A stretch of DNA of 55,429 bases, counting the filler, from Sluysia triapertura (lineage: Eukaryota), in assembly GCA_046118255.1 (NCBI GenBank). It is 3 parts of 3 records of this genome, joined end to end, with 100 filler letters (N's around TTAATTAATTAA, not from the genome) between each part and the next. Parts side by side here need not be neighbours in the genome. Positions count along the whole stretch, not along the records: positions 1 to 14,200 come from JBJNIA010003780.1; positions 14,301 to 42,612 come from JBJNIA010000011.1; 1 more part is not named here. One strand, 5' to 3'. The translations under genes and the position numbers were made by a program. Under the pieces are notes generated by a model, which saw only the letters and a list, made by a program, of their open reading frames with translations, was not told the DNA's origin and did not search any database. Below, one piece after another: positions 6,654 through 32,953 of the stretch. Each line of letters opens with the position of its first letter. Positions within the stretch are counted from its first letter, which is position 1.

Positions 6654-7409
6654 TTAACATAATAAATATTGATTAATTTTTACAAAGATTTAATTAATAA
6701 GCTTTATGAAATTATTATATAAGTAATTTTAATTTTTTAAAGCAGTTTCTAAGTTTACCAATTTTGACTTTTCGCATAATAATTGTTAAATTTATAAAAT
6801 GGTATTGTAATGTGTATTGTAAATATCTAAGGTGTAATAATATTTGTAAAACTTATTCTTAACTTATTCAAATTATTAAAATAATTATTAAATCACTTAT
6901 GGGCTTTTATATATCAAAACTTATAATGATATTTATATTTATATTTATATTTTATATTTATATTTTACTTGTTTACTTTCAGTTTATATCTTATGGTATA
7001 TATTATGATAATAATTCTAAAATTATAGTAATTATAAATTATTATGATTGTGTTTTGTTTGAAGAGAGTAAACTGTTTAGTAATTTATTTATGCATGAAG
7101 TGCTGTTTTGTAAAGAGATGTGTTTGTGATTGTGATGGGTTGATTGGAGTTCACAAAAGTAAGATAGAAGGCCTTACTAATGTGGAGTTAAATTAATTCA
7201 AAGACATTTACATATAATTACCAGATTATTTTAGCATTGAAATTGAAAATTTTAAATAAAAATTTTATTTCTATATAATTTGTGTTCAAGTATTTATTTT
7301 ATTTATGACATAAATCAAAGACATAAAATTGTTCGCTTTAAAGTTTCCTGACAAACTAAGTTTTGCATTTTTAAATAATCTATAATAAGAATAAGAAAAT
7401 CATAAAAAT

Positions 7410-8153
7410 TCAGATCAAGATTATAAAAATTACTTTGTTAGTGTCTTCATTAGCGAAACATGACATTGTGGATAACGTCTCATCAAAATTTGTCAAGATT
7501 GGCGTAATTTCGTTCCATCCGTGCGAATAAGGGCAAAATTCACCACATTTTACGCATTGATTAGTTATCGTAGTCTGTTATGGACAGATTATGCATATAA
7601 GGTTTAATCTTTTACCTAAAAAGTTGTTTACGAATTGATGATGCGTTAGAATTCCGAGACTTGTATTTATAATATTTGGGGTTTCGTCATAATTGTTTGT
7701 ATTATACTTTATGAAGTTTAAAAATTGCCTCGATTTATGATGATTCATCTTTACTTCATCTGTTTTTGAAACGATTAAGATATCTTGCAAACTTCTTAAA
7801 TGTATTAACTCTTTATTACGCTGGTTAACAAATAGATCATTGAAATTCAATTCATCATAATGATTTAGTACCACTTTAGTAGATATTTTAACTTGATCAT
7901 GATTATTTAGCATGCTGCTACTATGCCTTATATTGGAAACTTATGCATTCAATTTTAAGAATTCGTCACTTTGTGATTTGCGTGAAAATATTGATTGAAT
8001 TTGTACTAAATCTTTTAGACCAGAACCTACATATTCTCTAAAATCGTTGTTTTGTGTGCAATTTTCACCGAATCTATCATAGAATATTACTCCGGTGTCA
8101 TCTTTAATATAAAACGGTGTTACACTTTTATCAAATCGGTATTCTGATGCCAC
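7410..8153 (-). pseudogene. Pseudogenised ORF with a C-terminal CCCH-type zinc finger
   Basis: ORFs 7941-8153 and 7578-7913 and the continuation to TGA at 7410-7412 share one frame (247 codons, two TAA stops). Contains ICIICP*QTTITNQCVKCGEFCPYSHGWNEI, with a C..G..C.(Y/F).HG..E CCCH tail. Confidence 0.55.
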
Positions 8154-11100
8154 ATCAAGATTTAATTGACTAACAGACCATGTCTAATCTCACGATACAT
8201 TCGACTAATAAATGATTTAGGAATTATATGATTATAGTAACAGTTAAATTGATTAAATATATGATTAATGTAAAATTCTAATAATTTTCACTAGTGTTTA
8301 TCGCTTTATTGACTAAATAATGTTCAACCATATGTCCGACTATTAATTCTTGGATATTATTGAGATTTACTGTTTTTTAAATGTTTAAGATAAAATTCTT
8401 GTAAGTTTTTCTTTTTTACCAACTTTTAATTATGAATGATATTGTCTATTTTTAACAAAATTTTTGTGACAATAATTGGTGTCAAAATTTCAAGTAATAA
8501 ACTATAATATCAATTATTGGCTGACCAGTTGTAATTTCAGATTAACATTGATTAGGAATGATTATTATTGGATGGCCAAGGACATAGACAGTAAGACTTG
8601 CACCAACACACAATTCCGATTCTCAGCCCGTCTGGCAGATGTTGCTCTAAAAAATTAAAATTAAATTTCTGTACTAATAACTATCATTATTCGACAGTTA
8701 ACAAGATGGTTTGTATTATATTTAATTAAAACTGTCGGCTAATGACATTTTATATAATGAAGAACAGTTTTGATATAAATAATGAAAAATAATAGTGCAA
8801 GTAATATAATAGTAATAATAATAATGATAATAATAATAAATATGTCAATAATGATAATAATAATAAAAATGAAAGTAATAATAATTAAAATAAAATAATA
8901 ATAATATAAAATGAAAATAAAACACATGTATACATAATTCTTTCAAATTGGTCTTATATTTTAAGCATATAAATCTTTGCATTCTTTTATAACTTAATTT
9001 GACTTTTTACTTTGATAACTAAAACCGAGTACATAATAATCTTTCTCTTAATTCTTATTGTCGTATCAAAAGAATTTATGTAAATATAAAAAGGTAACAA
9101 CGTAGTTAAAGATGTTGAAAGAAATTCCATTTTGATTATAATGATGTTTTACAATAACTTTGAAATATCCTTGAAAGTCAATATATAAACAAAACAAACT
9201 TTTATTTTTATTATTTTCATTTATTATTATTATTCAACTAAATATTATTAATATTTTGTTAATAACATCACAGTATTATTATTAAAATTATTTTACTACA
9301 AAATGTTATTTAAGATGCACAGTCACTATCATATTATAATTATAATAATTATTAAAATTATTACGATGCGGTATGAGGTAGATGTGCAATCTAACATATG
9401 TAAATAAAAATATATTTAATATTATATCATCATAAAAGACAATTATTTTCATTTGAATTTATTAAAATTTTAACGATTTATTTGGAATAAAAAATAAACA
9501 TTTTAACAGGCCATAATTAATTATGAATTTTATGTTTTAAATTATAAAATTCATTGCTAAATTTTCTTTCGCAAACAAATCCTGTTATTTATATAAAACG
9601 CCTGTCGTAATTTAAATAGATTTTTTATTTGTTTTGATATTTTTCAATAGTTTTTCATTTTGTAAAATTTTATTAATTCAAAGGTGTTCCATTCCAAAAC
9701 ATAACTACTATCGTGTTTATTTTGGTTTTTTCGTGTGTGTAAATTTCACCAAATTGTACAAAATTGAAAAAAAACTATAAAGTAGTTAGTAATTTAATTG
9801 TTTAATCCTTAGTGACGTAAAAAACAAACATAATACATTTTAAAATGAAATTATCCTTATTTTGTAAAAACAATATTCTGTAAATTAAATTCAAAAGCTA
9901 TTTGATGTTATACTTTTCTTTCAAATTTCTCATACTTCACAATCATATTATCTAGCAGTTGCATGTGCAAATTCACAAGCGTTTGTTTTTTAGTAGTTTT
10001 AAATTTTACACAAATTATGATTGTCAATTATAAATCATAGATATCTGCTTTAACTGAAACCATATTACTAAAACAATTGCTGTTTCTAAACACAAATATG
10101 TAACACTTTTTATTCATAACATTTACAAATTATATTTGCGTTAATATGAAATAATTTTCATGTTCACATTTTTATAGCAAAATATTTATTAATATTTAAT
10201 TAAAGCAAGTAAAATTATGTTTGCACATTTAATTAAAATGAAAATTAAATTTACAAAATATTATAACTGTTAATTTACCATAAACACATGCAATTAAAGC
10301 AAAGCATTAGAGACGAAACAAATGAAATTATGCATTTACCTTTTTGAAATAATTGTACAAAAACGATTTTTAAACAAGTAAAATTATTAAATTTAACAAT
10401 ATGAAATTATTTTATAATATATTTATTTTGATAATACAATAATTCTTTCTACGAAACTAATTTGACTTTTAAATTTATTTTCTTATTTTTCTCAGACAAT
10501 AATTTTTTGACCTTAATTAAAAACGACTATTTATCAAATTTATTAATTATGCAGTTCAAAAATAAATTAATAATAAATGTATTTACAAAACAAAATCAAC
10601 ATAGTAACACATTTAACTAATAAGACAATATTATTACTAGGCACACAAGACAAAAACTTGATTTATGGTCCAACCATTATTTCTCCTACTCTATTCGGCC
10701 TATTTGTCCTAAATTAATTTTCACATTCAAATAACAATTATTAGAATTAAAAACATAAATGAAAATAATGAATTTAACATTACTTTTCCGAATTCAATTA
10801 ATTTTCAGTTATTCACATTCAATTTTCTAATTGAAACTGTTTAAGGTTCTTATTCTAAAACAGATTATTCTATAAACATTTCGAAATTCATTTCAAGATT
10901 CTTCTCTTTCATACCAATCTTATCATATTCAATTCATTGTCATTTCATCATTCTAAATATGAAACATTTTCTATTTTAGAAAATTTGATTTCTTTGCATG
11001 AATTAAATCAAATCACATCGTCATCCAAAACAAACACGTGCTCTGTCATAACTTTGTCATTCCGAATTCAAACGTTATTATAAAAATGTTAGGTTGTCAT

Positions 11101-11965
11101 CACATCCCTTAATACTACAAAACCGCTATAAAACAACTTAAAATATTAATTTATCTTATTTTCTAAAACAGAAACTTATTTTCTTAAAAAGGAAATATTA
11201 TTTTTTCCTGGAGAAAATAAAAAATTATAAATATGAAAATCTCTTTTAAACGATATTTTTATCCCGATGTAAAAATGTGTTTAGTTAAAATTTTATAAAG
11301 ATATAACACAAAAATAAACACAAACTGTATAAATAATTGACTAATTTAATCAAGAGATTTTGAACTTGATAATGTCTGCCAATTCCGATAGTTAAGATGT
11401 ATTTGATACTCAGAGTGAAATAACAATCGACACTGAATTAATAAATGCCTAAAACAATATCTTGCACGATGCGATGATAGTGACCACGTTGCACTGAAAG
11501 TATGACAGAGATATAATCTGTTAGATTTAGGTGATTTCAAATGTTCGGATAAAAGGTTTAAGGTTGATGTAAGTAAAGTATTGTTAAGTCCATATGGTAG
11601 GTTAAAGCTGAATTTTTCTCAAGAATTTTATGTAAAACCTTTTTTTGTTACTTATTAAGTCATTGATAATATATTTTGTTTCCGTTGCATACCCATGACA
11701 ATATTCTTTAGATAATATAAAATTATAATTAGATGATTATAACTTATTAATACTTCACGAAAGGACTCTCTTTTTATCATTCATATGCCGTTTAGATTCC
11801 ACTTTGGTTACGTTTACGTTTAATTCAGATTTATTTCAATCTAAAAACCAATTGATACAATAAAAGGAGAGTTTATTTCAACTCCCATCCTACATTTAAC
11901 TTTATCAGAACTATTTATTATGTTAACTAATTGAATGTCACCTACATTTGTTTCACTTCTTGATT

Positions 11966-13342
11966 TTAGATACATATGGAGTTTATTGATATATTAACTG
12001 TATATTTAAATGTTTTATGAAGAATGAGAACCATGGAAAAGTTTGAGGGCGTAAAGATCTGCAGATGAAGATAGATGTGGCTGAGTAGAACACCTACCGG
12101 AAGACGTAATTTAAAATTATGGTCGAGTAGAGTATCGCCTTTTGTAAGGTTATTGACATTCACATTTATATTATCTACTGAGTATTTGAAACATTTAAGA
12201 CGGATGTTAAAATTAGTTAATTTGTGTCGTTTACAGCCAATGTTAGAGACATTGAATTTAAGACGTTTAAAATAGATATTTATTAAAATTTTAATATTTA
12301 CAAGACTAGTTAATTTATATCGTTTATAGCAGATATTAAACACATTGAATTTAAGACCTTTAAAATAAACATTTATTAAAATATTAATGTTTGTTAGCAT
12401 GATATATTTGTTCAGTGGTGTGCAGCTGGATCGTCCTTCTTCGTTACAGGATCCAATTTTGCTAAGGTATAGATTAAAATATCTGGAATAACAAAATATA
12501 ATAATATAATTATAAAAAGAATTAAGCGTATTTAGACTTGATTTATATTCAAACAAATACATACCTTCATTAAGACTAAGTGTATGTTCCACAACATCAG
12601 TCATGCTATCTATACAACTCGTGCGTATGCCAATATTGAATATTTGGTTCATAAGATCATTGAGACTATTTACACGTTTCATACTTTTACTAACTTTGAA
12701 TACATGATTCATATGATCATTAAGACTAATTACAGGATTCATGCTTATACTAACATTGGATATTTGGTTCATAAGATCATTGAGATTATTTACACGATTC
12801 ATGCTTTTAAATTTAACGGAATAAACAGAATATGACTTTGGTCTTTCATCTTGCTTCATTTTCGAGAATTCAGAGTAATTAACTATCATACCTATAAAAA
12901 AGACATTTGGCTTCAAGCTCTTTGAAGTATTATTAATTGTTGAATAAACTTGATCATAAGATTCATAGCTATGGTTAGATATAAATTCACTGAAATTATT
13001 ATTTGTGGAATCCATACTGTGAGGATCTGCGGGAAATAAACATCTACGATTCTCGTATCTTGCCTGACTTCCTTTAACTGGAACTTCTGCAATATCTAAA
13101 AATATAACGTGGTCGACTCCTGCTTTATTGTACTCTGTTATGTCATCACCCTTGCCAGAAACGAGATCTAAAACTTTAACAGAAAGTGCATCACGTCTAA
13201 AACTATCCATCACATAAGTTATCAGAACACTTTTGGTACTATTGTTTAAGTTTCGCGAGCAAATGGTCGCTGATTCATTACGCTTTGACAAATTATTCTT
13301 TAAATTATCGTTGTGATTCTTAACTGAATCAGCATCGGACAT
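11966..13342 (-). CDS. RNMT (mRNA cap guanine-N7 methyltransferase)-derived chimeric ORF, 458 aa, intronless, probably catalytically dead or a young pseudogene
   Basis: ATG at 13342. VKNH..KRNES..RNLNNSTKSVLI, VLDLVSGKGDD, FLDIAEVPV..SQARY, SYESYDQV and LKPNVFFIG are collinear with RNMT RNFNNWxKSVLI, VLDLGCGKGGD, DIAxVSVxQCxxRY, SFESYEQA and LxPGGYFIG. The C-terminal two-thirds is unrelated and contains tandem repeats. Confidence 0.75.
   Translation of the reverse strand: MSDADSVKNHNDNLKNNLSKRNESATICSRNLNNSTKSVLITYVMDSFRRDALSVKVLDLVSGKGDDITEYNKAGVDHVIFLDIAEVPVKGSQARYENRRCLFPADPHSMDSTNNNFSEFISNHSYESYDQVYSTINNTSKSLKPNVFFIGMIVNYSEFSKMKQDERPKSYSVYSVKFKSMNRVNNLNDLMNQISNVSISMNPVISLNDHMNHVFKVSKSMKRVNSLNDLMNQIFNIGIRTSCIDSMTDVVEHTLSLNEGMYLFEYKSSLNTLNSFYNYIIIFCYSRYFNLYLSKIGSCNEEGRSSCTPLNKYIMLTNINILINVYFKGLKFNVFNICYKRYKLTSLVNIKILINIYFKRLKFNVSNIGCKRHKLTNFNIRLKCFKYSVDNINVNVNNLTKGDTLLDHNFKLRLPVGVLLSHIYLHLQIFTPSNFSMVLILHKTFKYTVNISINSICI
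12205..12400. repeat. 93-bp tandem repeat (about 2.2 copies) inside the RNMT-derived ORF
   Basis: TAGTTAATTT at 12214 and 12307; encodes 31-aa units (NIxILINxYFKxLKFNVxNIxxKRxKLT). Confidence 0.85.
12601..12810. repeat. 60-bp tandem repeat (about 3.5 copies, 120-bp higher order) inside the RNMT-derived ORF
   Basis: Successive 60-nt lines align; TATTTGGTTCATAAGATCATTGAGA recurs at 120-nt spacing; encodes 20-aa units SMxRVNSLNDLMNQIxNVxx. Confidence 0.9.
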
Positions 13343-14200
13343 GGTTAACAATTGCAAATGTTACTTTGAAATTATAAAACTTTTACCTTTTGTAGCTATT
13401 TTTTAGCTTTGCCTTTTTTATTTACAATGTCTGGCTTTTTAATTTTGTTTTTCTTCTCAATATGGCTGTCAAAATAAATTTTTTGTTGTTTTATTTTTTA
13501 TTTGTCTGACTGTAATTATTAAATTGTGAAAAGAAAGGTCTAAATTAATTTCATTGATTTCTTTCTTTAGTCTTTCACACACACTCCAGTGTTGATTTTT
13601 TAGCTGTGTGTTTTCTACTCTCTGTATTGATTTTTTAACACAAGTCTAGTCAAATTTTTATGATTGGTCATTTCGCATTAACATTCGATCTTTTTCATTT
13701 GGACCAATCAAATACGATCATGGCTACTGACAGATTTTTGTAGTAATTTGCAGTAATGACTGCCAAATTGATTGTTTTAACATGATATTACGTCACAGCT
13801 AACGTGTTGTGACTAATAGCAGTGATAGTGATGTGTAGTAGCAATACCAATGATGAGTAATAGCCCGTGATAAAGACGATAATAAAAGTACTAATAATAA
13901 TAATATTAATTGTAATATTAAGAATAATAATGGTGATAATAATAACAAAGAAATAATAATAATGTAATTAATAGTAATAGTAATAATAATAATAAAAAGT
14001 AATAATGGGAATAATACTGATAATAATAAGAGTAGTAATAGTAATGATGAGAGATAGAAATAAAAATAAAACACATAAATCTTTATCTTTAAACATGATC
14101 TTCTCTTTCTTTCTTCTTAACTATTCTACATATTTAGAGCAATAAAATGGAAATATAAGTGAAAGTGATGAAGAAAGATGGGAATGTAGAACAAGTTTAT

Positions 14201-14300
14201 NNNNNNNNNNNNNNNNNNNNNNNNNNNNNNNNNNNNNNNNNNNNTTAATTAATTAANNNNNNNNNNNNNNNNNNNNNNNNNNNNNNNNNNNNNNNNNNNN
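14201..14300. other. Artificial contig-join spacer
   Basis: N44-TTAATTAATTAA-N44 (stops in all six frames), identical to 42613-42712. Confidence 0.97.
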
Positions 14301-14320
14301 TATGTGTTTTGACTTAATCA

Positions 14321-14388
14321 GTTGCGGAACCCCTGTCAACGTTCCAGGGAACCCTAGGGTTCCGCGGAACCCAGGTTGAAGACCCCTG
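14321..14388 (-). mobile_element. hAT (Charlie/Buster-like) transposon terminus
   Basis: Minus strand begins CAGGGGTCTTCAACCT followed by palindromic GGGTTCCGCGGAACCC subterminal repeats. The flanking 8-mer ACGTAGGC fits the nnnTAnnn target-site pattern. The element runs into the contig end. Confidence 0.8.
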
Positions 14389-17035
14389 ACGTAGGCTATG
14401 TAAATAATATGTAATTAAATATAACTTACCAATTTTTTTGTATTTCATCTTTTTATGAAAAAATTGTACTCTCTCAGTTTGACAAATATTTTTGGAAGAC
14501 ATTTATTATACTATTTTCAAACACCACATTATCATTTTCCCGGAGTCGAACTCGATGACTATTTAATTAAGTTTAGAAACTTCAGTTAATAATAAAGCAT
14601 TATGACGAGATAATTGAAATAGTGGCATATTGTTAAAATTGGAAGAAAAGCGAAAATAAAATTAAAATAATTATTTACAAATACGAAAGCAAAATAGCGT
14701 AAACGAAAAAAACTATAAACAGCAACAAATAGGAAAAAAGAGTATAGGAAGCAATGCATCACCAAAATACGCAAGAAACACTAATTATAGTAACGAGAAA
14801 AATAAAAACTATTGCATATAAAAAGAAACCAGCGAAACCATAGTAAGTGACTAGCTATAAGAAATCTATAAGCAAAAAAGAAGATACGCATTAGTTATAA
14901 TTGATACATATTATAAAAGAGAATAAAATGATATGCAATAGTGTATCATAAGATAAAGATAATTCTTTAATGAAGCCTATTGGCTATAGTAGATAGCAAA
15001 ATAGGCAGTAGTACAGAACAAATAGATAAATTTAGTAGATTCACACAATATTAGTACACAATTAGTGGAAGACAATTATCGCAACTTGATGAAGACCGTG
15101 GGACATTTCATGATTAACAGCAGTCGATTATTTGTTTCTTAAAATGTACAAATAAAATTACGTTGTAAGTACAATTTACCGTTAACATTGTTGTTTTGTA
15201 TATCTTAATATTTATTATCTAACCTATTGATTGCTTAACGTATTGTTAATTGAATCATTATCATTTAATCTATTGTTTAATTACATATTTGCCATTTATC
15301 CTATTACTTGTTTAATTACATACTTATCATTAGTTATTTAATTTAATTGATTGTTTAACTAGTTGTTAATTGAATTTATTAATAAATTATAATTCATCAT
15401 TAGCATTTTTGTAAATATTTGCAATTTAAATTAAAATATTAAACGAACACAAGCAATTTTCCATGGAAAAATATTGTTATTCATAAATCGTCGTTAAAAT
15501 TCAATACATATATCTTTAAAATTTAATGTGTATAATAATGTGAATAATGTTCAATAAAAATAATATTTATTTTGCAATTTTAAAATAATATTTCATTTTA
15601 AATTTTAATGCTCAATAAAAATAATATTTTCATTTAAATTGTAATGTTTCAATAATATTTTTTGTAATTTTAAATTGAATAATTTAATAATCATAATTTA
15701 GTCATAACTTTTAATCATAATACTTTGAAATCAAAATTTAGTAGTAAATAACAATCACATTAAATTAAATTTGTACAGAGTAGTTATTTTAAATTGAGAT
15801 TAAATGGAGATAATGTGAAATCAAAATTTCAAAACATTAAACCTTATTCAGTTAATTAAGTAAATAAAATTTTATTAAAGTAGGATTACATAGAAATAAT
15901 ATCCAATCAAAACTTAAAATCACTAAATTCAATGAAAACCATCTTAAAGATTGGGTAGAGTAGGTAGATGTTAAAGGTATTATGATTGAAAATTATTAAT
16001 TTTGTATTATAAAATTATGACATAAAATTTAGCATGCATGAAATTATCATTAAATCTTGTAGCTATACAATTATTACTATTAATATAAAATTACGCTATA
16101 AAATTAGTATACATGAAATTATTATTAAATTTTGTACATATACAGGGAGAAGTAATCAATAAAAATGTGCATATGTATTTAAATATATAATTATTAATTA
16201 TCGTATTTTGGTATTATTAAAGTGCTAAAACATGAATATTTGATGTTTGGTTGATATTTGATATTTTGATCGATAATATTTATATGGTTGATAATATTTG
16301 ATATTCGATTAACTATATTTTATTAAGAATATCTGATTGCATGTATATTTTTGTCTCTAATGGATTTTTATGGCGATGCATTGTTTCTTATGCTCTTTTT
16401 TCCTTTTTTGCTGTTTAAAGTATTGTTCGTTTACAATTTGTTTTGGGAAAACTGATAAAGTAATTTTATTGATGTTCTTCTTCACTGTATCGAATAATAT
16501 TGATATTAGAAGTGTTAAAATAAATTTTCATTAAGATATTAGCTTTATTAATCAAATAATTTGCTGTTACGCTATTTCTTATAGTTAACGAGCGGGTTGG
16601 AAACACAGTCACTATAAAAAATTAGAATTAACGAACGTACAATTTTAACAAATCAAAAGACAATAAATCATAGAAGTAAAATAAAATTGATATTAATTAA
16701 AAAAGTATTCCTCTTAACTAGAAATTTAGTTATATAAAATACGATAAAGAAGGAATATAGTCTCCTAAAGTAAATAAGATTTCATCGAAGAGTAATAAAT
16801 TTGCAGAATTTTTTTAAAGCATTTATATCTCGAACAACTGAGTCGAGTATACAAATTCACTAATAAATATAATTAATTAACATAAATTTTCAAGATTTTA
16901 TACGCAAATATCAAACACCAAAAGAAGCTTTAGACAAACGAAGATAAATCTGAATTAAAATCACAAATTATAAATTATAAATTTTACTTTAAACAACATA
17001 TATTTTAAAATTCTTACAATAATAATCTTGCATAA

Positions 17036-17090
<55 letters not shown>

Positions 17091-18901
17091 GTAATAGTAA
17101 ATTTGGGAAATTCATGTATGCTATATGGAACATGTTCGAATGAATGTGATTGTATACGATTAAATGTTTGCACGCAATGTATATAATTTGAATGAATAAA
17201 ATCTATATATTAAATGTTTTTCTAAAAATCATGTATTATGCAGTGAACTAATAAAACTAGAAATATAAATTAGATCATTGTTAAATATGATTAAAACTAA
17301 AATTGTTAGTAAAATTATTTCTATCTATTCAATATACTAGTGAAATTTATACAATGAAATAATATAAATTATTTGATTCGAAAACACAAAGAATTGCTGA
17401 AACTATTGGATTATCAAACGCACTATAAAAGATTGTTGACTACTATAAAATTGCGAGAAACAATTATTGAATCGAAAATGGCGGATTACGATAATAATAA
17501 ATAACATAAATTAATATATTATTTGATTGTTAACTGTGATTGATATTTATAAAATTATCAATATAAAAGTAAAAATATTATACTTATTTATATTGTTTAA
17601 CATTTAATGTGCATCTGTTTGAGTATTTATAAAACTTGAATATCACATCTTTGTTCATTATACATTACAGTTTAAAATATAAATCGTTCTTGTTAGTACT
17701 TCTTATTTATACACAGAGATAGAAAGTTGGATTCATCTGAATAATTAAATTTATCTTTTGTTTATTAAGCACTTCCATCTCGAACAGCGAAGCCGACTAC
17801 AGAATTCACTCTCTTAGATACGAATCATTTTAGTAAGAGAAACTTAACGTAACTGAATAAATTTGATTAAACAAAGATAAATTAAGCGACAGTTAAGTTT
17901 AACTATTTTGAATGAATTTAAGAAAATAATTCGAGATTAATATAAACAAGTAAGATTGATTGTTTATTTAACATCTATAATCTTCTAAAGAAATACAAAA
18001 GAAACATCAAAGAAGGAAAAAACTAAAGTAACAACGCTTATTAGCAAAAAGCATTTTTTTGAAAAAGTTATTTTTAAATTTTACATATATGCAGCTTCAT
18101 TTCTATCCAGACAAGGTCGGATCATCAAAAGCTCAAGCAAAATAAGGAAAATAATTCAGGATATAAATTAAATAGAAACATTCATTTAACATTTTTAACA
18201 AGATTATAACTTCAGTAATTTTATTTATTCAAACAAAGCACATAACAAACATTAATATCGATCAAGTCTGAAAATAATATTTTTATGTAAGTTGTATCAT
18301 AATACTAAAGAGAGAGAATTTATAAATTGTCACAAGTTTATAGTATTGTTGAAGCAACATAATACTCTCAACGTAAATATCTAATATTTTAATAAATGCT
18401 TTATTGCGCTCTGATGTAATGTTTAAAGAAAATATAATACTCCCTTATATGTTATTTTAGTGTTGAAGATGATATTTTATTATTTAATTTATGAATTTTG
18501 TGATTTATTATTATTACTCATTATATTAATTATTAATTTCTTGACTTTGTTATGAAAATTTTTATTGTAATAATTTTTACGAAAAAATTACTTAGGTACT
18601 TAATGCACTTAGACAATTCATTGTTATATTTATATTTTAAATTATAAATACGAAAATGAAAACAAATATTATTTCTGTTACAAATAGAAAACATAAAGAA
18701 GGCTTATAATCAAATTGTTCACAGGTCACTTTTGGATAATGTTGAATAAATTATGTTAACAAAATCACTTTAAGTATGAAATCTAAATTTACAACATTTA
18801 CAAGATTGATTATGTGACAAAATCATTTTAAATTGAAATTATATAGAAATCGTATTAAATTTTAAGTCATATTTTATTCTGGATGATTAATAAAGTGAAT
18901 A

Positions 18902-18970
<69 letters not shown>

Positions 18971-19249
18971 AACAAATAAATACTTAATAGTATATGCTTG
19001 TGAATAGTTCAACTCATTGGAAATGAATGGTATTGAATTAGATGCGAATAAGTTAATAATTTATAACTATGTTGGTATGTTATACTTATTTATTTATAAG
19101 TATAAATAATTAAATTCATTGAAGTAATTTTGCTTAATAATAAATTTGGCTAAAAATAAATAATTATATTTATAACATTATATCATTGGAAATTTAATAA
19201 TTATTTCTGTTACATTTTATACTCGTAATATTTCACTGAAGATCGTGAT

Positions 19250-19600
19250 GGTCGGTTCCACTAATTAGATACGTTTTATACCTGATCGGGAGGTTGTAAT
19301 TAGATTTCTTAATCTTATACAACAAATTAATGCTAAATGCTTATATGATATTTTGAGACTGCTTTACTAAAAGACATGTCGTTATCAAAAGAAGTTAAGT
19401 TGGCCTTACTACGGTCTGTCAGTATAATTGATAATTTATATGTTAAATCAGCCTTCGTACGGTCTGATCAATTATGTTAAAGTTTTAATATTAAATCAGC
19501 CTTTGTAAGGTCTAATCAAGTATTCAATATTTTAATTTAAGGAACTTGGTTAAAAATCAAAAATATATTAACAAATATCGTGTGACAGTTATAAAGTTTA
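19250..19600 (+). repeat. Dispersed repeat, with an inverted second copy at about 43150-43610
   Basis: ACTAATTAGAxACxTTTTATA...GTTxTAATTAGATTT and GCCTTxxTACGGTCTG motifs occur in both places; three ~48-bp internal units at 19400-19520. Confidence 0.65.
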
Positions 19601-19919
19601 TAAAAATCTAATATCCATCAGCAGCAAGTAGCTATTCCAACATTATATTTACAAAATTATATTATTGGAAATTTAATAATTATTTCTACATATCTTATAC
19701 TCATAATGGAAGTAAATAATAATCTAAAACATGTATAAATAGGAAATATTATAAGACATCACAATAGAAGTTTTAACGGGCATACTAGTCAATATTATTG
19801 GGAGTCATATCGAAACTGACCGCAATTGAACTACGTTTTTCTATTCCATGTGTAGTGGCCAACCTTGATAAACACTAAATTTTATTACAAACTAATACCT
19901 TTTTTTCTTCCTTTCTCTT

Positions 19920-20070
19920 GTCATCATACCTAACAACCATATATTCAATTCCACAACATCTAAATCACAAGTATCTTCAACATTACCAATTTACATCAAC
20001 TAATCCACCAGAAACATTACTCGACATTCACAATAATCCAACAACACAGTAAAAACAATCCATTTAATAC
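19920..20070 (-). pseudogene. Decayed Tudor-domain relic
   Basis: DCFYCVVGLL*MSSNVSGGLVDV, then after a frameshift GNVEDTCDLDVVEL; resembles Tudor WYRAxV...VxVxFVDYGNxExV...DIxxL. Confidence 0.4.
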
Positions 20071-20706
20071 TTTCGAACCCTTTATTTTACACTACACTTT
20101 AACAATTAATACCTAATATTTAATAACATTTATTCAATATCTTATTTGCTTAAACCAAATCACAACCATAAACTCATAAAGCATAAACCGCAATTACATT
20201 TAACACCATTTCATAACACCAATAAATCTACTCGAAACGCATAAAATACTTACTTCACATTTTTGAATCAATTACAATATTTCAAATGCACTATTCATCT
20301 ATTCATAATCATCGTCAACACAGTACAGCAACACCAAAAACATCAAACAAATTAATTACACAAAACATAGCATAATAACATCTTAAATATACCAAGAGTT
20401 GTATTGTAATTGTCCTTTCAGATTCATTAAATTACAATCTTCTCAATAAGCCTTTTATCCACAATATTTCAATACATAAATTTTGTTTTCAAATATGAAC
20501 TTCAATCAATAACATTCTTTATTTTATTTCAAGACTCAAATAAATTATTATATCTTCATAGGTTAATTATACTTACCAATTCATTCGAAACAATTATTGC
20601 TCAGAGGCTTATTCCAAAGTACGTTTTTTATTCATTTTAATGTCTTACAAACCTTTCAAGAACTTAAGGTAAATCGTATACAGTTTTAAAGAATTCAATT
20701 TTATAC

Positions 20707-20764
20707 AGTGAAATAACAACGATAACTCGAGCATAATACACCCTGTTATCGTTGCTATTTCACT
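20707..20764 (-). other. 20-bp stem / 18-nt loop hairpin
   Basis: AGTGAAATAACAACGATAAC ... GTTATCGTTGCTATTTCACT; the single mismatch becomes G.U on the minus strand. Confidence 0.85.
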
Positions 20765-20977
20765 CACTTTTATCAATTTTTAATAAATTTTTTGCCTTTT
20801 TCATATGTTGAGAATAAAAGAATAAAGAAAACAAAATTGTGTGAAAGACATAAAAGAAAGTTTATTTATTGTTTTACATTTTTTTGTTTTATTAATAATA
20901 ATAATAACAATATTGTTATTGTTACTATTATTATTACTAACGATTACTAAATTAATTATCACATAAGATGTTGCTGT

Positions 20978-21036
20978 CATCACCAGTATTGACACTGCTC
21001 GTCAAGGTCTTCATTATTGTGTCAATACTGATGATG
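20978..21036 (-). other. 18-bp stem / 23-nt loop hairpin with a lower stem extension (20970-21052)
   Basis: CATCACCAGTATTGACAC ... GTGTCAATACTGATGATG; the single mismatch becomes G.U on the minus strand. Flanking TTGCTGT/ACAGCAA can also pair. Confidence 0.85.
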
Positions 21037-21140
21037 GTCAATTAACAGCAATCGCGTTTTTGTGTGCCAGATCTAAGTTTCTGGCCATCATCCAATCAAG
21101 ACCGATTTCACTGATTTATCTTTTGTAAAGCCCTGACTGG

Positions 21141-22600
21141 ATGACCAACCTCAAACTAAAAATTAAAAAATTAAATTCCATTTATCAAAATTGTGTAATA
21201 ATTTCATTATCAAAGAAAAGAGAGAACTTAAATTCGTGTTTATATTCTAATTGTTTTGAAAATATTATCAATAACCCAAAATTTGTCAATCGTGATTCTA
21301 ATTTCGAGTATTATTACAGAATGCATTTGATATGGAAATTCGTTTTGTGTGGACTGTTCAAAGTTTATAATGATATATTACGAAATGCCGACGTATCAGA
21401 CGATATTAAATTACATATTCAAAATTTTTATGAAGAAATTGAAAATGATGGATCCGAATACATTAGAGATATTAAAAAATGATTACAGCATTTGATGATC
21501 CGAATCAGCACTTTAGATTCAGTTTGTAGTTATTACTTCATTTCCCTATCAGAGTCTCTTATGATAATCAAGAGTGATCACTTTAAGACTTATTCGTATA
21601 AATTAGTAGATGCTATCATGATTGAGTTAATAGCTCAACTAGCTGATGGCGAAAATTTCAACTTCGATCTTATTAATCATAGTTTTTACTGCCTCAAATT
21701 AAAGGATTTGTGTGTTTATAAAAAGGACGATGAAATTGTTGAATTAAGAGATGCATGAGCTCAATTAAGTATGAAATTAAAAGGATTAGGAGTTAAAAAT
21801 GACTTATTGAAAGAATCTTTGAAAAATGTGCTAAAACCGGATACTGCTCTTTCACAAGCTATAGAAGGTTTGAAGAATGTTAAGCTTGATCATATTTTAT
21901 GTTATTCATCAACAATATGTCAAGTTATGAGAATTGCGCGTAATTCAGTTATCTTACCAAATTTTATGCGCATTAGTGACGGATTGTCAATAAATGAAGA
22001 AGGATTCTAGGTCCTTATTATTCACCATTATCGATTAATTCATTAATCGAGTCTAGTACTAATTTAAATACTTTTACAGAACCAGTAAATCTTACACGTA
22101 ACATTTCAGAATCACCTAGTGATAGTCGTCAAAATAACGAGTCATTATCAGATACTTGGAAACCTTCAGGTAACAACAGAAATACAAATATCATAGATCC
22201 TACAAGTATATCTATCAAAATGTATTACACTAATAGGTTGCCGATAATCTTAAAAATCAACACAGACATTTACACACGAACCAATGTCTTCAATACCAAA
22301 AAATCATATGCTGCAAAAGAAATATCGACAAAGGCAAAGCTTTTACAGAACAAAGTCAGGAATGGTCACTATGAAACATTACATATAGTAAAATTTTATT
22401 TTACTTATCTTAATTACTATCTTGATATTATATTTTTTTTAGAATTTAATTCCAGCCCAAGACTCGATGGCATATCGACAGATGCAGCACAGAGAATATT
22501 AACGATGAACAAAAATCTAAATAAAACTTTGAAACTTATTAAGCATATTTTAAAAGTGTTTTACAATTTAATAAATAATAGTTTTTTGTGTATTTCGTGA
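21141..22600 (+). pseudogene. Large decayed intronless ORF, unknown family
   Basis: ORFs at 21141, 21492 and 21771 share one frame, separated only by TGA stops (21480, 21756). After about 22010 a frameshifted Ser/Thr/Asn-rich frame runs into ORF 22220-22600. Confidence 0.6.
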
Positions 22601-24807
22601 ATTTTTGATTGATAAAGATTCGTATAATAACTCAAAATCAAGTTAGATAAAATAAAAAGCAAATTAATAGTTTATACTATCTTTAATAACCAAATTGTTA
22701 GATTTAAGTATTGTAATTTAATGAAAGATATTAAAGTATTACCATTCGGACACAATAATTTTAACTTAATACTATTGCGATATAAAAAGATAATATTTAA
22801 AACTTTGAGATTTTCATTTTTATATGAACACAATAATGTTCTAAATCAGTATTCTACGTAGAAAATGATAAATACTTAAATATGTACAAACTATTATATC
22901 AGTACTTTGTCTGCTCTCCTTTGTTATTCAATAATAAAAAAAGCAAAGTTCTTTCTGTTTCAGAAATACTATGGTGAATGATATACCATAAGCGCTTTTG
23001 AGTACTTTCGCGGTAGATATGAGCGCCATATAAATTAATATATTATTATTATTATTCTAAATTATGTAAAAATAATAAAAAATAATAAAAATTATTATTA
23101 TTAATTAAAAAATTTTGAATGTTAAAAAATCAATAATTATTAAGTTGATATTTTAATTATGAACACTGTACCAATTTTAGTTTTGATTGTCGTAATAACG
23201 ACTTGTATAGTGATTTATTTTTGCTATTCACTTAAATGGCCGAATTCTATTAAATTTCTATTGATCAATTGATTAAATGACAACCAATCATTTACTAAAT
23301 CATGTTATCATAATTTGTTACTAAGACATGACATTTTGTCGAATTATGTAAAGTATGATATAAGTGCTATGAAACGAAAATTACGAGTTTGGCTAGGTAT
23401 GGTATCATGTTGGCAAGCTACCTTAATCTTCGTCACAAATAAACCCGTTTATTCTCTTGTTTTATTTAACCAATTAACAACATTGTTGTTATCCATGATT
23501 TGTTTAGCAATTATAATAATTTTTATAAACTTCATAAAAATAAAACGCACAATAAAAGGAAAACAAACTGTCTGTAAAATCTGTTTTAAATTATTATTTT
23601 AAAAATTATATTGACCAACTTGATAAGATAACGAAATTTTAATTTTCAAAATGAAAAAAGTTTTACGAAAAAATTTATCACTAACTTGAAAAACATCACT
23701 GTACATTGCATGAAGCATAATTTGCAGAAATCGGAATAGTTTATAATTTAGTACCTTTAGGCTTGCTTTAATCTTAGAAAACTGTTACTGCATGCAGTTT
23801 GGGATTTAGTTTTAGTCAGTTATTTCCTATTTCAAATCGTATAATTGTAGTCGACTGTACTGTATGTGTGGGTATAGCATAAAACGGTTAAATCCGTTAA
23901 AAATGAAATTTTTTGTGGGTAATAACAAGTTACTAAAATCATTAGTAAAATCATTACTAATAATAGATAATGCTTAGATAATTACAGTGCAGTTATTGTT
24001 AATTTTTTTATTTATTCATTATTTTTAACGAACAATACTTTGATTTTGCGATTACAATGTTTTTGATTCTAATACTAATCCTTTGATTCCCGGAAATGTT
24101 GCGTAATGACGTAAGTAATTAAAAGTTTAGTACCTTAAATTATTGGTGAGTTTCAAGTGAAATTCTTAATACATCGTGGAAAATACACAATGCTATCTTT
24201 TGTGTTTTTGAGGTGAGCAGTTTCAGAAGAAATTACTTTTAAATAAACTCTTCTGATTGGATATTTTAATATTAAAAACCAAACCTGAATATCCTACCTT
24301 AGAAGTTAATGGTATTTATTATTATTATTATTACTGCGATTTTGGTGTCTATTCGTAATTTTGATTATCTTTTGTTTTGCATTTGATTTTTCAATTTTCT
24401 TGAGATTAGAAATTTAACTTTCCCATTCTAAAGTACTAAACTAAACTTTTTTGAACAATGGCATTAATCATTAAACTTTTAAATGATGAACTCGTAAAAA
24501 TTATAGCAATAAAGTTCTGGAATTTTAATATTAAACTTTTGTAACGTTATAAACGGTATTAAGTATTTAATAAATTTAGATTTAAAGTTTTATATTTAAA
24601 GTTTTATATTACTGTAAAAATACAAAAACAATTAGAAAATTTAAAACGTTTTTTATGAAAATTCTAATTTAATTAATTATATAATATAAAAACACCACGA
24701 CATTCATTTTCAATCTTATTTCTAAATGTGACTCAAATTATATCATTAAATACATCATAAATATAAAAACAATCATTAAATGTATTACGAAATTGTTTCA
24801 GGAAAAA

Positions 24808-25251
24808 TTATATTTTCGATATTTTATCAGCTTTTATTTCCGGTAAATCTTTTGCTAATTTTTTCGATTGATTTTTTCTATAATCAAAATTACAATCATG
24901 TTCAGTACTGAACATGTGTGCAGTACACAAGTACTTGAAACAATTACACATTATACCTAACAAACCAATTTTCTTTCTACAAACTTCACACCGATTAGGT
25001 TGTCTGAATTTGAGTGGCATTTCATCGAAATGTCGTTGACAATAACCACGAGTGTTTTTTCCTAGGTGTAATGCATCACAATCCTCCGATTTACAGATAA
25101 GTCCATCGGCAAATAATTGTTTTTTCTGAAATATTTCTTCTTCTTCTTTCAATTTTTGTTCTTGTATCTGTTTAAAATGAATTGAACAGTAACCCAAGGT
25201 ATCATTAGTACCATAAAAAGTACAATTTTCAAATAGACACTTACTGGCCAT
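24808..25251 (-). CDS. A20/AN1 zinc-finger protein (ZFAND5/6-like), intronless, with two A20-like fingers
   Basis: N-terminal CxxxxCxFYGxxxTxGYCSxH; intact AN1 C-x2-C-x10-C-x-C-x4-C-x2-H-x5-H-x-C followed by FDYR; family-typical end PEIKADKISKI*. Confidence 0.92.
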   Translation of the reverse strand: MASKCLFENCTFYGTNDTLGYCSIHFKQIQEQKLKEEEEIFQKKQLFADGLICKSEDCDALHLGKNTRGYCQRHFDEMPLKFRQPNRCEVCRKKIGLLGIMCNCFKYLCTAHMFSTEHDCNFDYRKNQSKKLAKDLPEIKADKISKI

Positions 25252-26649
25252 TACGTTTCAAATATCAATTTTATAGTTAAATTTAATTTTATATTTTAAC
25301 AAATATAATTACGAAATAAAATTTATCAAATAATATAAATTTATCTAATAATATAAGTAATATAAATTTAAATAAAACTTACTTATTATTTGCAATTTAT
25401 AATTTTTTTTTCATTTATAGTTTTCGTGATAGAATAAAATATAACGTTTTAAAGATATACATTATTTTATAAGTAATATTTATTTTGATTTTTTTGAGAT
25501 TGTACTTATAGTGAACAAAATGAAAAACTACGTCTAATGTTTAATTTAAAACTTTGTATTTCAATTTTAAAACCGAATAATAGGTTCAAACATAATTCAA
25601 ACAGAATATTATATTTGACGAAAAATAAAGAATGGTTTCGAAAATTTATTACGTCTTTTTCAATAATCGAATATTAAAATGATCATTTGAAATATAATTA
25701 TTAATGAATAATTATTGAACAAAAAATAACTTATTAATTTTTTTACGAAAGTTAAGCATGAAGTAATACGAAATCATTATATTGTTGGTGATTTAAATGG
25801 TCATGTGGGATTTAATTAGTTTAATGATAAATGTGAATATATTTTCAAAGAAAAATGAATCATAATGAACATTTTTATTATGACTAAGAAAATAAATTTT
25901 CATATTTTATTTTAATAGTTCATTTTAATAAACAAACTTTTAACATACAAACTTTTTAAGGTTGCTGCATGTTGTGTTCATATTTTAATTATATTTTCGT
26001 GGATATTGATAATATCTTCCACGTTCCTGGACAGATTTACTCACTCAAGTTAATGTTCGACAACATCAGCTAATTTGATAAACACTTGATGACAAGTAAC
26101 AAATATAGTGAGAGTTAAAATGTTTAAGAAAATTTTACCGAAATGTACAAACAAAAAAATTGTATGTCTGATAATTTAAAAGTAAAAAATAGAGAAAATA
26201 AAGTAGTATGAGAAACTATACTACTGAATGATTTGAATTAATATTACTGATAATAATATTTGTTTACGAAATAATGAAATAACCGTTCTACACTGATACC
26301 GAATATGAAATTGACTGGGAAACAATCTGTGACTTACCTAAGGGTTCCCGCAATGACAAAAATATTGCTTACATTCTCATCTGATCTCCACATCCATAAC
26401 TTAGACATAAATAGTCGCTTTGGTAGTTGTGATATTTGAAAAATTTCTTAGATTTATTTTTAATATAGGTGTCGCGTTCAATATCATTACAAAAGCATTA
26501 CCAATATTCAAAATATGGCTTAAGGTCGGTGAAATTCATTACTAAATATAATTTTACGTATACTAAATCAATATTTATTCCATAAAAATAATAAAAACCA
26601 TAATAAAGAACACGAAGAAACTTTATTAAATGTAATAATATATTTTAAA

Positions 26650-27200
26650 CTGTAACTTGTTCGTACCTAACATTTGATTGGTTAGCCTTTTTCAAAATGA
26701 TTTCATTTATATCAATAGTAAGCGAAGCTTCCTTTTGCAAATATGCATTCGGAAGCTTAATATCCTTCTTTTAGAGCATCAAGGAATTATACCTGTAAAT
26801 CTATCATTTGCAACAAAAACCACAACTTTGCGGTTTATCTTTGTACATCGTTGATGTATAAAAATAAATATCGTCTAATTCTCAAAGTATTTTGAATACT
26901 CATATCAATTACTAATTTCTGTGGATCTAGTAATTGTTTTGTTTTATTATCAAACATTTTGTAAAACAAATGATCATTAAATAATCAAACATAACTCAAC
27001 GTTTAGGTTAAATTTTTAAATTTTACTTTACTATAATAAATTTGAATGTAAATCTTTGATAAATTTCAAAAATGTCACAGTCATCGAATTCATTGAAATT
27101 TTTTGAAAATTTTCTCTCATGTAATCATATTCAGCGTCCACTTGAATATTTTTCTTTTAATTCTTTTTTCGTTAAGTGTACAAATTTAAGCAATGTTTTC
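26650..27200 (-). pseudogene. Possible decayed ORF next to cassette copy D
   Basis: Protein-like fragments (NIQVDAEYDYMRENFQKISMNSMTVTFLKFIKDLHSNLL; FLDALKEGY) broken by stops. Confidence 0.25.
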
Positions 27201-27889
27201 TGAAAATTTAAAATTTTGAAATTTCACTGAAATTCTAACATTATGATGAGACCATTATCAGTAAATCTGGAATGATCCATGCAAACTGCATGCATAACAA
27301 CATTCTTAAGAGGAATAAAAATCTCAGAACACGAAATACCAGCAGCAGAGCGGACTTATCGAAGAAAAAGTAATAATAGTAATAAATAGTAAGAATAGTA
27401 ACAAAAATAATAATGATAATAATTTTAATCACTGACAAAAACTTTAAAATCTTTCAAAATTTGTTCTTTTCTTTTCTTTTTAAAGTTTTACATATATAAA
27501 TATCTCTTATATAGTATTTATAATAATTTTTAATAATTTTTATAATGAGTAAATTATAAAAAATTTATATTTTGAAGATTTATGAAAGACAATATATTAT
27601 TAATAATAATTTATAGAACGGTGGTTTTGCAGTAATTGTTAATGCTGATAAGGATTGTGGAAACGGTCTCTAGAATATGATAAAATGAAAACGTATTTAA
27701 TGTTTTGTAAATTAGAGATGGACTTAGAAAGATGTGTTCAGTGTTGAATGTGGTCTGATGTCTGATTGTGATATAATAAAATTGTCGATAATGGTTTGGG
27801 GCTACAATCTAGAGATGTCCTCCAATCGGAACAATACGATGAAACTGTCCATAAAATCTTTAAACTTTCCTCTAAATAAATGTTTATTC

Positions 27890-28100
27890 TACGTTCACAA
27901 AAGTCTTAAAGCTATGTTTAATAACGGCCATAATTTAGTTTGCACGTTTCGCCTTTTTATTTATCCTGGGTTAAATGTATGTTGCACAGATAAATATGCA
28001 AAGTTGCAAATTTGATAGACCAAAATTAAGACATCTTCTTTAACTTTCAGTGTAAATACAAAACCCAGGTAACATTCATTTTTGTTGTCGATCAGATTCA
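27890..28100 (-). mobile_element. CR1-like LINE reverse-transcriptase C-terminal relic
   Basis: NECYLGFVFTLK and INKKAKRAN*IMAVIKHSFKTF resemble E+DLGV...L.F and HI...V.KAN..+G.I+R.F. Confidence 0.45.
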
Positions 28101-29539
28101 ATCTGACATCAATGGAGACGATCACATGTAGTGGCTCAATTAATAATATATATTATTCTAATACAGAATCAGCACATTATAAATGTTTAACTCATTACAG
28201 AGGCAACATAATTTCCAATCTAAATCACATATTCTTCGATCATTCTATACCTCAAAAAAATTTCAAATAATAAATTCACAACTTCATCCAATATAATATT
28301 TCAACCTTAAATCATTCAAGGATGATTAAACTAGACAAATTTATTCTATGTATTATTAAAAAATTGATTAATCAAACTACTAATTACAAAAATTAGTAAA
28401 GAAATTAATAAGTGAAAAAATTGAAGAAAGAAACTACTCAACACCACGAAAACTTCAACCTTTCAACTATGTCTTTCTAATAACATGATTCGTTCTTAAC
28501 CTAATTACATATATTTTACGCAAGACCATGCAAGACGAAAGAATTAAAGAAAATTTTACCAAAAATAATGAAATAACAATAATAATAATAATTAATGCAG
28601 ACAAAATTACGCTATTTGGAACTAATGATGTAATGATTAATAGTTACATAACATTAATTACTTCCTAAAATTTTTCATTTTTAATTTGAGAAGGATTATA
28701 TGTTTTATGTGCATGCAGGAATTTGTTTTAAGAGCCAAAAAAACTTTCAAGATGGCTGAAAATATTTACTAAATAAAATGATTTCAAGAAAATTTCGTTT
28801 AATCAAAATGTATAAAATGGAAACTTCATTCCTTAAAATCATATCAAAATTTCTGAAAGATCCAATTTTAATATATTACATGATTACATATTTATCGACG
28901 TTACCTAAAATTATATTCATTTTATAATTTATCATTTATCTATTATTTTAAGTGGATATTTGCAGTTTATTTTTATTTATTTTATTTTTAAATTGCATAA
29001 ATGAAATCTCATATTCATTTGAAAATTTTAAATGTTACAGAAGTGACTAATTTCATGCTGATGATTTTTCTAGTTTGTATTTGGATTATTCTAAGAGTTT
29101 AGTCAATTTACTTAAATTCATTTTCTTAGAATGAAACTAAGTTATATACTATGTCGAACTATGTTTAACTGGCTTTTTAAATTCAAACCAAATAAGTATC
29201 ACGGAAATTTCATGCGAAGTACTTATTATTATGATACATAAAATGCTGCATATTAATCCACTGGGTATTATTATATCATTATGTGCTGTTATAAAAGCTG
29301 GTAGAAATATAGGATCTCTTGGTAAAATAAAAGCAAAATTACGTTTTATTTGAGGGTTGATTATCAATCAGAAATTGCATTTGATTTAAAAGGACATGAA
29401 TATTTAAAAGATTATATTAACCCAACGAAGGACATTACGTTTGGTCGATAAAATATGGAAAGTCTGTATAAATTTCAAGGTTAGTTTACCGATTGCTTTA
29501 TGAAAACCTCCTTTTCGCTTCAATTAAGTAACTGTTGAT

Positions 29540-32504: not shown

Positions 32505-32953
32505 TTAAAGAAAAAAACATATATAACATATATAATGTACAGTAAATCTGACACTTGTTTTGGTAAATATATTGTTTAAGGTAAATTTCAACACACAAAA
32601 TCTCACTTATTTTAATTATTATTCCCGATAAGATACATTGATCATATTGCAGTTATAAAATTAAACGCTCTCGGAGCTTTAATTTAAAAAATCGTCCTTT
32701 TATATTTTCCCTTTACTTTATTATAAATTTTAATTGTTCTTTTTTTGTGCAATAAAGTTATAATCATTAAATTGAATTAAAGTTTAAATGAAATTGTAAA
32801 TTCAATTAAGAAAAAATTACGCAGATAATGAGCATTTGATAAGACCCTAATTAAGGAGCACTGCTACTTAGATAAAGTATTATCTTACATAGTTACAGGG
32901 ACCATTAAATTTACAAAAGTAAAATTTATTTTAAAATTCTTTGTAATATCGTC

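Follow-up and report, generated by a model that had tools for sequence, protein, structure and literature searches.

A tight cluster of microRNA-sized hairpins at one of four sites with a loosely shared hairpin and AAT-tract layout in a 55-kb window of the Sluysia triapertura genome

The window analysed here is a stretch of 55,429 nucleotides of the Sluysia triapertura genome (assembly GCA_046118255.1; GC content 25%, three assembly gaps). The initial annotation had described in it four copies of one layout, A-D (A 8560-8975, B 13660-14135, C 20800-21140 inverted, D 27260-27500), each with a GC-richer block, an AAT tract and an intronless open reading frame (ORF) pointing away. Only copy C gives a clear signal: RNA hairpins of microRNA size that lie close together. 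Three of these, strand-specific, of the size of microRNA precursors (pre-miRNAs) and lying in or just outside C, are the strongest feature found, and they had not been noted before. Judged from the sequence, A-D are loosely similar in layout, and that they derive from a mobile element cannot be demonstrated. The reading favoured here, with a probability of roughly 0.35, is that all four are related, old and heavily decayed versions of a single gene-head module acting as a divergent RNA polymerase II unit, with a hairpin RNA opposite the ORF. All tests on A-D were confined to the window.

Both strands were scanned for uninterrupted stems of at least 14 bp with at least three G-C pairs, G.U pairs being permitted. 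Only three stems in the 55 kb qualified, all on the minus strand of C and within 440 nt: 21145-21087 (59 nt), 21036-20978 (59 nt) and 20764-20707 (58 nt). Shuffled windows gave 0.07-0.09 stems of at least 17 bp per window, and none of 367 gave three. The motifs quoted in the initial annotation were all recovered in their places, including the 18-bp stem of C at 20978-21036. The elements of C are:

21075-21157, minus strand: hairpin P1 of C, 17 uninterrupted pairs (21145-21087, five of them G.U) with inner and basal stems, a rod of about 35 bp
20978-21036, minus strand: hairpin P3 of C, 18 uninterrupted pairs and a 23-nt loop, 59 nt, z -4.6
20707-20764, minus strand: hairpin H3 of C, 20 uninterrupted and 6 inner pairs, 58 nt, z -7.3
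20893-20936, minus strand: AAT tract of C, which folds back as a 20-bp AU-rich stem
20785-20870, minus strand: downstream module of C, with AATAAA at 20870 and 20866, TCTTTCA at 20848, CATAT at 20807-20803 and an A-rich run from 20801

The folding energy of P1 is -29.4 kcal/mol on the minus strand against -13.0 on the plus strand, and in the four stems of C all eight internal non-Watson-Crick positions are G.U on the minus strand. P1 includes the ATTGG/CCAAT site of C, with ATTGG as its 3' arm, and overlaps the opposite-strand ATG at 21141. H3 falls outside the extent first given to C and its basal stem is weak. With their flanks the C hairpins have minimal folding energy indices of 0.96, 0.97 and 1.2. 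Folded as a whole copy (491 nt), C reached z -10.3, against +1.6 for A, +0.5 for B and +1.0 for D.

The cluster is like the lineage-specific, polycistronic microRNA clusters of flatworms and other spiralians in having several hairpins of 55-65 nt grouped on a single strand over a few hundred bases, with G.U pairs and low folding energy. It differs from them in that the stems are nearly bulge-free, one loop has 23 nt, and the first hairpin overlaps both a CCAAT site and the opposite-strand ATG. The best Rfam scores relative to their cut-offs were 34 of 100 bits (mir-8536, with H3), 19 of 74, 17 of 65 and 14 of 75. Novel flatworm microRNAs are species- or lineage-specific according to one study (PMC3840308), which would explain the missing Rfam match. 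The mir-71/mir-2 cluster was rejected as an identity, its seeds lying here on opposite strands or outside proper hairpins. Six hairpin-arm motifs gave no match in the main texts of the literature.

The corresponding elements of the other three copies are:

8517-8579, plus strand: hairpin P1 of A, imperfect, with two ATTGG 51 nt apart
8684-8745, plus strand: second hairpin of A, arms CGACAGTT (at 8692) and AACTGTCG (at 8730), weak, z -1.7
8770-8970, plus strand: degenerate AAT tract of A with a shortened downstream module, TCTTTCAA at 8939 and CATAT at 8966
13661-13835, plus strand: GC-richer block of B, in which two GACCAATCA sites form an inverted pair (13661-13710), with two more hairpins, z -2.6
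13812-14198, plus strand: degenerate AAT tract and downstream module of B, TCTTTAA at 14086 and CATAT at 14129, z -1.4
27250-27495, plus strand: D, with an AAT tract at 27365-27432 and CATAT at 27491, no CCAAT and no stable hairpin block

The short hairpins described for A-C are strong in C and moderate in the B block (arms GTCACAGC at 13792 and GTTGTGAC at 13806), which folds on the same strand as C and was equalled in local folding by none of 60 shuffles, whereas those of A, like those of D, are not above shuffles. P1 of A and P1 of C keep 18 of 18 consensus pairs with three double changes; among 749 control windows that form hairpins, none resembled C-P1 to the same degree in both identity and consensus energy. 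In a wider control set the two best partners of A-P1 lie in B and C, while for C-P1 the partners from A and B come fourth and fifth. A-P1 is a possible paralogue of C-P1. A long hairpin at 35405-35475 has the core GACAGTT..AACTGTC, which is also the core of the second hairpin of A; it is followed by ATTGGATG at 35535, and together with A it gives a weak consensus fold. Single hairpins whose stems are bulged and which are weaker than the C hairpins are found at 841-905 (minus strand), 196-270 (plus strand) and 33802-33860 (minus strand).

The AAT tracts of A-D are four of the 11 in the window. They are degenerate (purity 0.40-0.65), have an upstream GC content of 0.30-0.34 and contain 2-8 register shifts with mostly AGT or GAT variants, as aged microsatellites would. 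The tracts at 36105 and 51110 are equally degenerate and also have GC-richer upstream flanks. The downstream module beyond the tract consists of an A-rich part, TCTTT(C/A)A, pyrimidines and CATAT; the motif TCTTT(C/A)A..CATAT follows four of the 11 tracts and occurs nine times in the whole window. The span from TCTTT to CATAT is 48 nt in B, 46 nt in C and D and 32 nt in A, and in A, B and C an AATAAA stands 52-72 nt ahead of the CA within CATAT. U-rich runs are found in the module of C (20859-20852 and 20836-20828). In B a purine run is able to pair back onto the pyrimidines, and an assembly gap begins at 14201. In D a 12-bp AU stem (27438-27489) encloses the pyrimidine module, and 14 nt at 27250 match the 5' arm of C-P3. 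The 14-mer AAAATAAAACACAT is identical at 8914 in A and at 14063 in B and is one of 73 such pairs with at least two G/C in the window.

A detector blind to the motifs returned A-D as the only set of four among 11 flanks with a common two-block pattern. By chance the pattern was obtained in 5 of 20000 random quadruples, in 25 of 300 best-of-ten sets from random windows and in 96 of 5000 local shuffles. When the 126 four-subsets of nine AAT tracts were ranked by summed alignment score, A-D came first for the downstream module. The sharing of this module is modestly above chance (p about 0.02-0.08 in the blind test), and to this extent the view of one layout in four copies stands; for the GC-richer blocks, which are no better than controls, it does not.

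The four neighbouring reading frames are:

7413-8183, minus strand: ORF relic next to A, poor in stops (2 in 257 codons)
11969-13342, minus strand: RNMT-derived ORF beside B, 458 codons without a stop
21141-22597, plus strand: stop-poor ORF beside C, with two internal TGA and a frameshift near 22000 (2 stops in 289 codons, then 0 in 200)
26300-27244, minus strand: doubtful relic beside D, 17 stops in 315 codons (p 0.02), no family match

ORF heads pointing away and at most 700 nt from a tract were counted by hand, with the tract at the window end excluded. They were found at three of the four motif-bearing and at none of the six motif-less tracts (Fisher p 0.033), so that the proposed bias in orientation and adjacency is present, for this window only. 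Compared with shuffles, the frames next to A, B and C have far fewer stops. An intronless ORF pointing away can thus be upheld for three copies, whereas the D relic is weak (17 stops in 315 codons); its 3' half has 4 stops in 167 codons in a frame picked by eye.

Divergent promoters with CCAAT boxes bound by NF-Y are a known kind. The sites are like them in that CCAAT is repeated or inverted at a spacing of 41-51 nt, adjoins an AT-rich run and lies 50-350 nt from a gene start; they are unlike them in that D has no CCAAT and in that such promoters require neither long RNA hairpins nor a common motif at 300-470 nt from the CCAAT boxes. ATTGG/CCAAT had been reported for A-C and is indeed present in these three and absent from D. 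The NF-Y-type consensus occurs 26 times in the window, four of them in A (1), B (2) and C (1), and the GC-richer blocks raise the chance rate of such sites. The ORF heads at three of four copies together with the NF-Y-type sites in A-C make a promoter-type module plausible. The earlier suggestion of a bidirectional promoter family is of this type; common ancestry of the blocks is not demonstrable.

In the favoured reading of a decayed gene-head module, the CCAAT sites in the block would drive an intronless gene copy in one direction, as their motif and position suggest. On the opposite strand, transcription running from the block through the AAT tract to the AATAAA/pyrimidine end would yield a short, hairpin-rich non-coding RNA. 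The folding of this RNA is predicted by computation for C and partly for B. Precursor size, and a rod shape that P1 fits, would make cutting by Microprocessor and Dicer the most likely fate of the C hairpins, which would then give small RNAs from a lineage-specific cluster resembling a primary microRNA transcript. In A and D the structure would have mostly decayed, leaving the hairpin RNA intact only in C. The neighbouring ORFs would be drifted duplicates of host genes, with frames that have long been open, and this long openness suggests expression from the module. If this is true, the window holds a locus for small or hairpin RNAs that is lineage-specific and has escaped annotation, together with its decayed paralogues, each sharing a promoter region with a drifting duplicate, and it offers a case of how gene copies stay expressed or open in an AT-rich spiralian genome.

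A number of results speak against this interpretation. Pairwise p values of the GC-richer blocks are 0.03-0.45, with 0.015 and 0.025 for control pairs, and the blocks of A-D rank 33 and 15 among the 126 four-subsets under two settings. In the alignment of masked copies that had been proposed as a check, the blocks aligned no better than other AAT-tract flanks. Leave-one-out nhmmer profiles recovered none of the four blocks and one of the four downstream parts, at E 0.28. Covariance models built from A and C and from B and C did not recover the left-out copy, B not being found at E up to 10 and A only at E 5.4. A and C mutually rank 2 and 6 among about 1800 windows, but for another query from A the top place goes to the flank of an unrelated tract, and self-blastn at E up to 1, in rows above 15% GC, gave no match linking any two of A-D. 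On these sequence comparisons common ancestry of the blocks is not demonstrable. The downstream module is of low complexity and has no consensus structure. The best cross-matches in the wider control set are not collinear, and the covariation between A and C, with two sequences only, was equalled in 65 of 500 shuffles. As to C itself, an 8-nt bulge and the 23-nt loop make P3 atypical of a precursor; G.U was permitted in defining the stems, two of which have A.C positions immediately beyond their ends; no family in Rfam scores as high as its cut-off, a comparison that covers Rfam families only and leaves room for a new one; and H3 lies beyond the AATAAA/CATAT end, which makes the 3' end of the RNA ambiguous. 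Finally, an intact A20/AN1 gene and other intronless ORFs of the window are found without the module.

Much of this would be expected if A-D were unrelated promoter or intergenic look-alikes made of the aged AAT microsatellites, A-rich and pyrimidine runs and CCAAT boxes that are common in this genome and the C hairpins were a separate local feature, an explanation that we regard as nearly as probable as the favoured one. C would then be a young microRNA or hairpin-RNA cluster, or a set of inverted repeats from template switching in replication, and the hairpin cluster alone would be worth keeping. The upstream blocks that behave as controls, the failing leave-one-out profiles and covariance models, the shared 14-mer as one of 73 such pairs, the best-four-of-ten null (25 of 300) and the strong folding of C only all fit this. 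It fits less well that the blindly chosen subset coincides with the degenerate, GC-flanked tracts and with the ORF heads, that the TCTTT to CATAT span is so similar in B, C and D (48, 46 and 46 nt), and that A-P1 and C-P1 share a fold.

It is rather improbable that the module is the end of a gene-carrying mobile element, for example a decayed 3' or solo long terminal repeat (LTR) whose antisense promoter would drive a captured retrocopy, or a non-autonomous element of Helentron type with an inner microsatellite. The fixed orientation to intronless ORFs, the structured RNA on the would-be sense strand and the order AATAAA, pyrimidines, CA, as at the R-U5 end of an LTR, agree with it. Solo LTRs and miniature retrotransposons with terminal repeats (TRIMs) such as the taeniid ta-TRIM are similarly a few hundred bases long with a poly(A) signal ahead of a CA end, and they are transcribed into neighbouring sequence (PMC4558846). 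Copies A and C, and not B or D, contain a TG..CA segment that begins at the tract (210 bp in A, 156 bp in C) and whose flanks match over 4-5 nt; the matches are short and AT-rich and possible by chance. The sites differ from solo LTRs and TRIMs in having no primer-binding site (PBS), polypurine tract or paired repeats, in target-site duplication (TSD) evidence that is weak and limited to two of four, and in ORFs that are antisense. Neither a PBS after CA nor a polypurine tract before TG was seen in any of the four copies, neither being expected for solo LTRs.

Helentron derivatives of the HINE/DINE-1 kind are non-coding, contain an inner microsatellite and stem-loops and are tied to gene capture (PMC4067079); the likeness in microsatellite and stem-loops is not specific. 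A-D differ from them in having no 12-15 bp subterminal inverted repeats, hairpins on one side of the AAT tract only and no alignable family. Inverted repeats of at least 10 bp with three G/C and a spacing above 100 nt, which would mark terminal or subterminal inverted repeats, are absent from the four copies and their flanks. Of a Helitron-type 3' hairpin with CTRR and T there are six loose candidates in the window, none at the ends of A-D. Matches to gag, pol or RepHel, and coding domains of Burro type, were not seen in the frames scanned, which were not all frames of the window; planarian Burro elements are among the gene-carrying giants (PMC6431247). With no boundaries found, weak TSD evidence and copies that cannot be aligned, the idea of a mobile-element end put forward in the initial annotation was not borne out.

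Other candidates of this kind were rejected. If C and D were the inverted ends of a DNA transposon of Pack type, long terminal inverted repeats and TSDs of 8-10 bp would be expected; there is only the 14-nt C/D match, one of ten similar short inverted matches, and the repeats in the flanks of C and D are AT runs. A SINE (short interspersed nuclear element), Penelope-like or retrozyme end was dismissed, with no tRNA, no Rfam match, no hammerhead core and isolated A-box-like matches only. Neither Rfam nor ARAGORN supported a tRNA, 7SK, telomerase, RNase P/MRP, snoRNA or hammerhead RNA. The ends of A and D may resemble a planarian spliced leader.

The shared part could also mark where a transcript ends or is spliced, on the strand running from the block to the AAT tract: a poly(A) signal with a U-rich downstream element, a stability structure like the elements for nuclear expression (ENEs) or a polypyrimidine tract ahead of a cis- or trans-splice acceptor; this is distinctly improbable. 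AATAAA is present in A, B and C, the 12-bp stem of D closes the pyrimidines, C is the sole ENE-like hit, and B has a branch-like TTAAC and TTTAG as read from the sequence. TCTTTCA in A, C and D is moreover complementary to the mir-71 seed GAAAGA (PMC3840308), but it occurs 24 times in the window. For a splice signal the distance to AG is not conserved, and the ORF heads are left unexplained. The likeness to ENEs (KSHV PAN, MALAT1 and transposon ENEs; PMC7583470) is that in C two C/G-interrupted U-rich runs face a G/C-interrupted genomic A-rich run. Unlike ENEs, C has an upper stem of 3 bp and no tRNA-like element after it, and A and B do not fit. The closing stems of C (6 bp) and D (12 bp with one G-C) are A-U rich, without the flanking G-C pairs that define ENEs (PMC7583470). 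A descriptor written after C had been seen has C as its sole hit in the window, and none of 60 shuffles matched with an A-rich run; a looser descriptor gave four hits against a null mean of 2.7, no enrichment, and misses A, B and C.

Very improbable, finally, is a new spiralian element or long non-coding RNA (lncRNA) family in which a row of precursor-sized hairpins, an AAU linker and a MALAT1-like triple helix with a genomic A-rich run would always be paired head-to-head with a captured gene copy, sharing a CCAAT promoter and moving together. Microprocessor would there take the place of RNase P in cutting the downstream hairpin, and the partner would be an intronless, fast-drifting copy of a housekeeping gene. 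The review lists ENEs in viruses, in lncRNAs of vertebrates, and in transposons from plants, fungi, slime mould and fish (PMC7583470). If the mobile-element or the triple-helix version were true, host genes would have a new way of being captured and ENE-type elements would extend to invertebrate lncRNAs. The combined concept gave no match in the main texts of the literature; taken singly the parts recall known kinds, and for their combination no match was found.

The ORFs beside A-D differ in how well they can be named. That beside A is stop-poor, as had been stated, but its label as a CCCH relic is unsure, the matches being weak and conflicting: UNK-type CCCH, NSE1 RING and ribosomal S8 (E 0.008, 0.002, 0.42; score 0.81). 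Residues 24-180 of the ORF beside B match cap N7-methyltransferase contiguously (Pfam 4.9e-25; PDB 2e-14), with an altered glycine-rich S-adenosylmethionine motif. In-frame tandem repeats of 60 nt and 93 nt follow, and the second half has no family match. The best match among 1.84 billion representatives is 37% identical. The RNMT origin thus holds, but the 93-nt repeat, which aligns non-significantly to the C-terminal half of RNMT, hints at an expanded RNMT and not the chimera that had been proposed. No family was found for the ORF beside C (21141). A Tudor relic reported on the other side of C was not confirmed, its frames not being ORF-like (23-28 stops in 267 codons) and having no Pfam match. 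The region 19500-20600 (plus strand) is strongly C-rich with a GC skew of -0.64; by eye it resembles the RNase H end of a LINE (long interspersed nuclear element) and not an opposite-strand Tudor gene, with no Pfam or PDB support. A Tudor-like relic was seen by eye at 39150-39450 (minus strand), with no Pfam or PDB match.

Six-frame self-tblastn detected no relation among the neighbouring ORFs (its one match lies elsewhere); they are mutually unrelated, and a tandem gene family is therefore ruled out. A reassigned stop codon was rejected because the ORFs differ in their in-frame stops, one having TGA and another TAA, and short introns that would excise them were not found. The cassette itself was considered as coding, with CATAT providing the ATG on the ORF strand and the tract a membrane anchor or poly-Asn; this was rejected because of the 2-8 register shifts in the tracts and because the ATT strand is stop-free by construction. 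No poly(A) run is present at the four ORF ends. The ORFs are likely to be processed copies.

Of the intronless ORFs without the module, that at 24811-25251 (minus strand) encodes an intact, very divergent protein of 147 amino acids with A20-like and AN1 zinc fingers (Atlas 0.90). Word-indexed protein searches with the RNMT and A20/AN1 ORFs gave no match, and none of four window proteins was in an exact-match collection. A broken relic of a TRM10-type tRNA methyltransferase lies at 5860-6700 (minus strand; Pfam E 0.007, no PDB match), and upstream of it, at 7126-7212 (plus strand), is a hairpin with ATTGG and without an AAT tract. The 170-codon ORF at 32888-33397 (minus strand) has an in-frame 183-nt duplication (120 nt at 91%) and no clear family. 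Exon-like open frames of a large host gene, with no Pfam match, extend over 51238-54184 (minus strand); they resemble a UBR4-type ligase.

The host lineage was placed with two TMEM26 exons at 40.6-41.4 kb (Pfam), whose top single-domain matches are proteins of nemerteans, molluscs, annelids and flatworms. In a tree with 24 named references the window lies on a long branch within the spiralians and outside the molluscs, with 39% of columns filled. On this sequence evidence the genome is that of a non-molluscan spiralian and AT-rich; a free-living flatworm may be its source.

Further repeats were observed in the window. A GC-rich palindromic stretch at 14322-14388, beside a gap and starting with CAGGGG on the minus strand, resembles the end of a small DNA transposon. 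By eye, relics resembling CR1 (27650-28150, minus strand) and piggyBac (50219-51100, plus strand) were seen, with no Pfam support, and the flank of the tract at 51110 falls inside the latter. Dispersed repeat pairs of 76-84% identity, unrelated to A-D, are 10644-10806/38270-38428, 14699-14767/16368-16434, 30297-30364/42539-42606 and 19246-19310/43547-43612.

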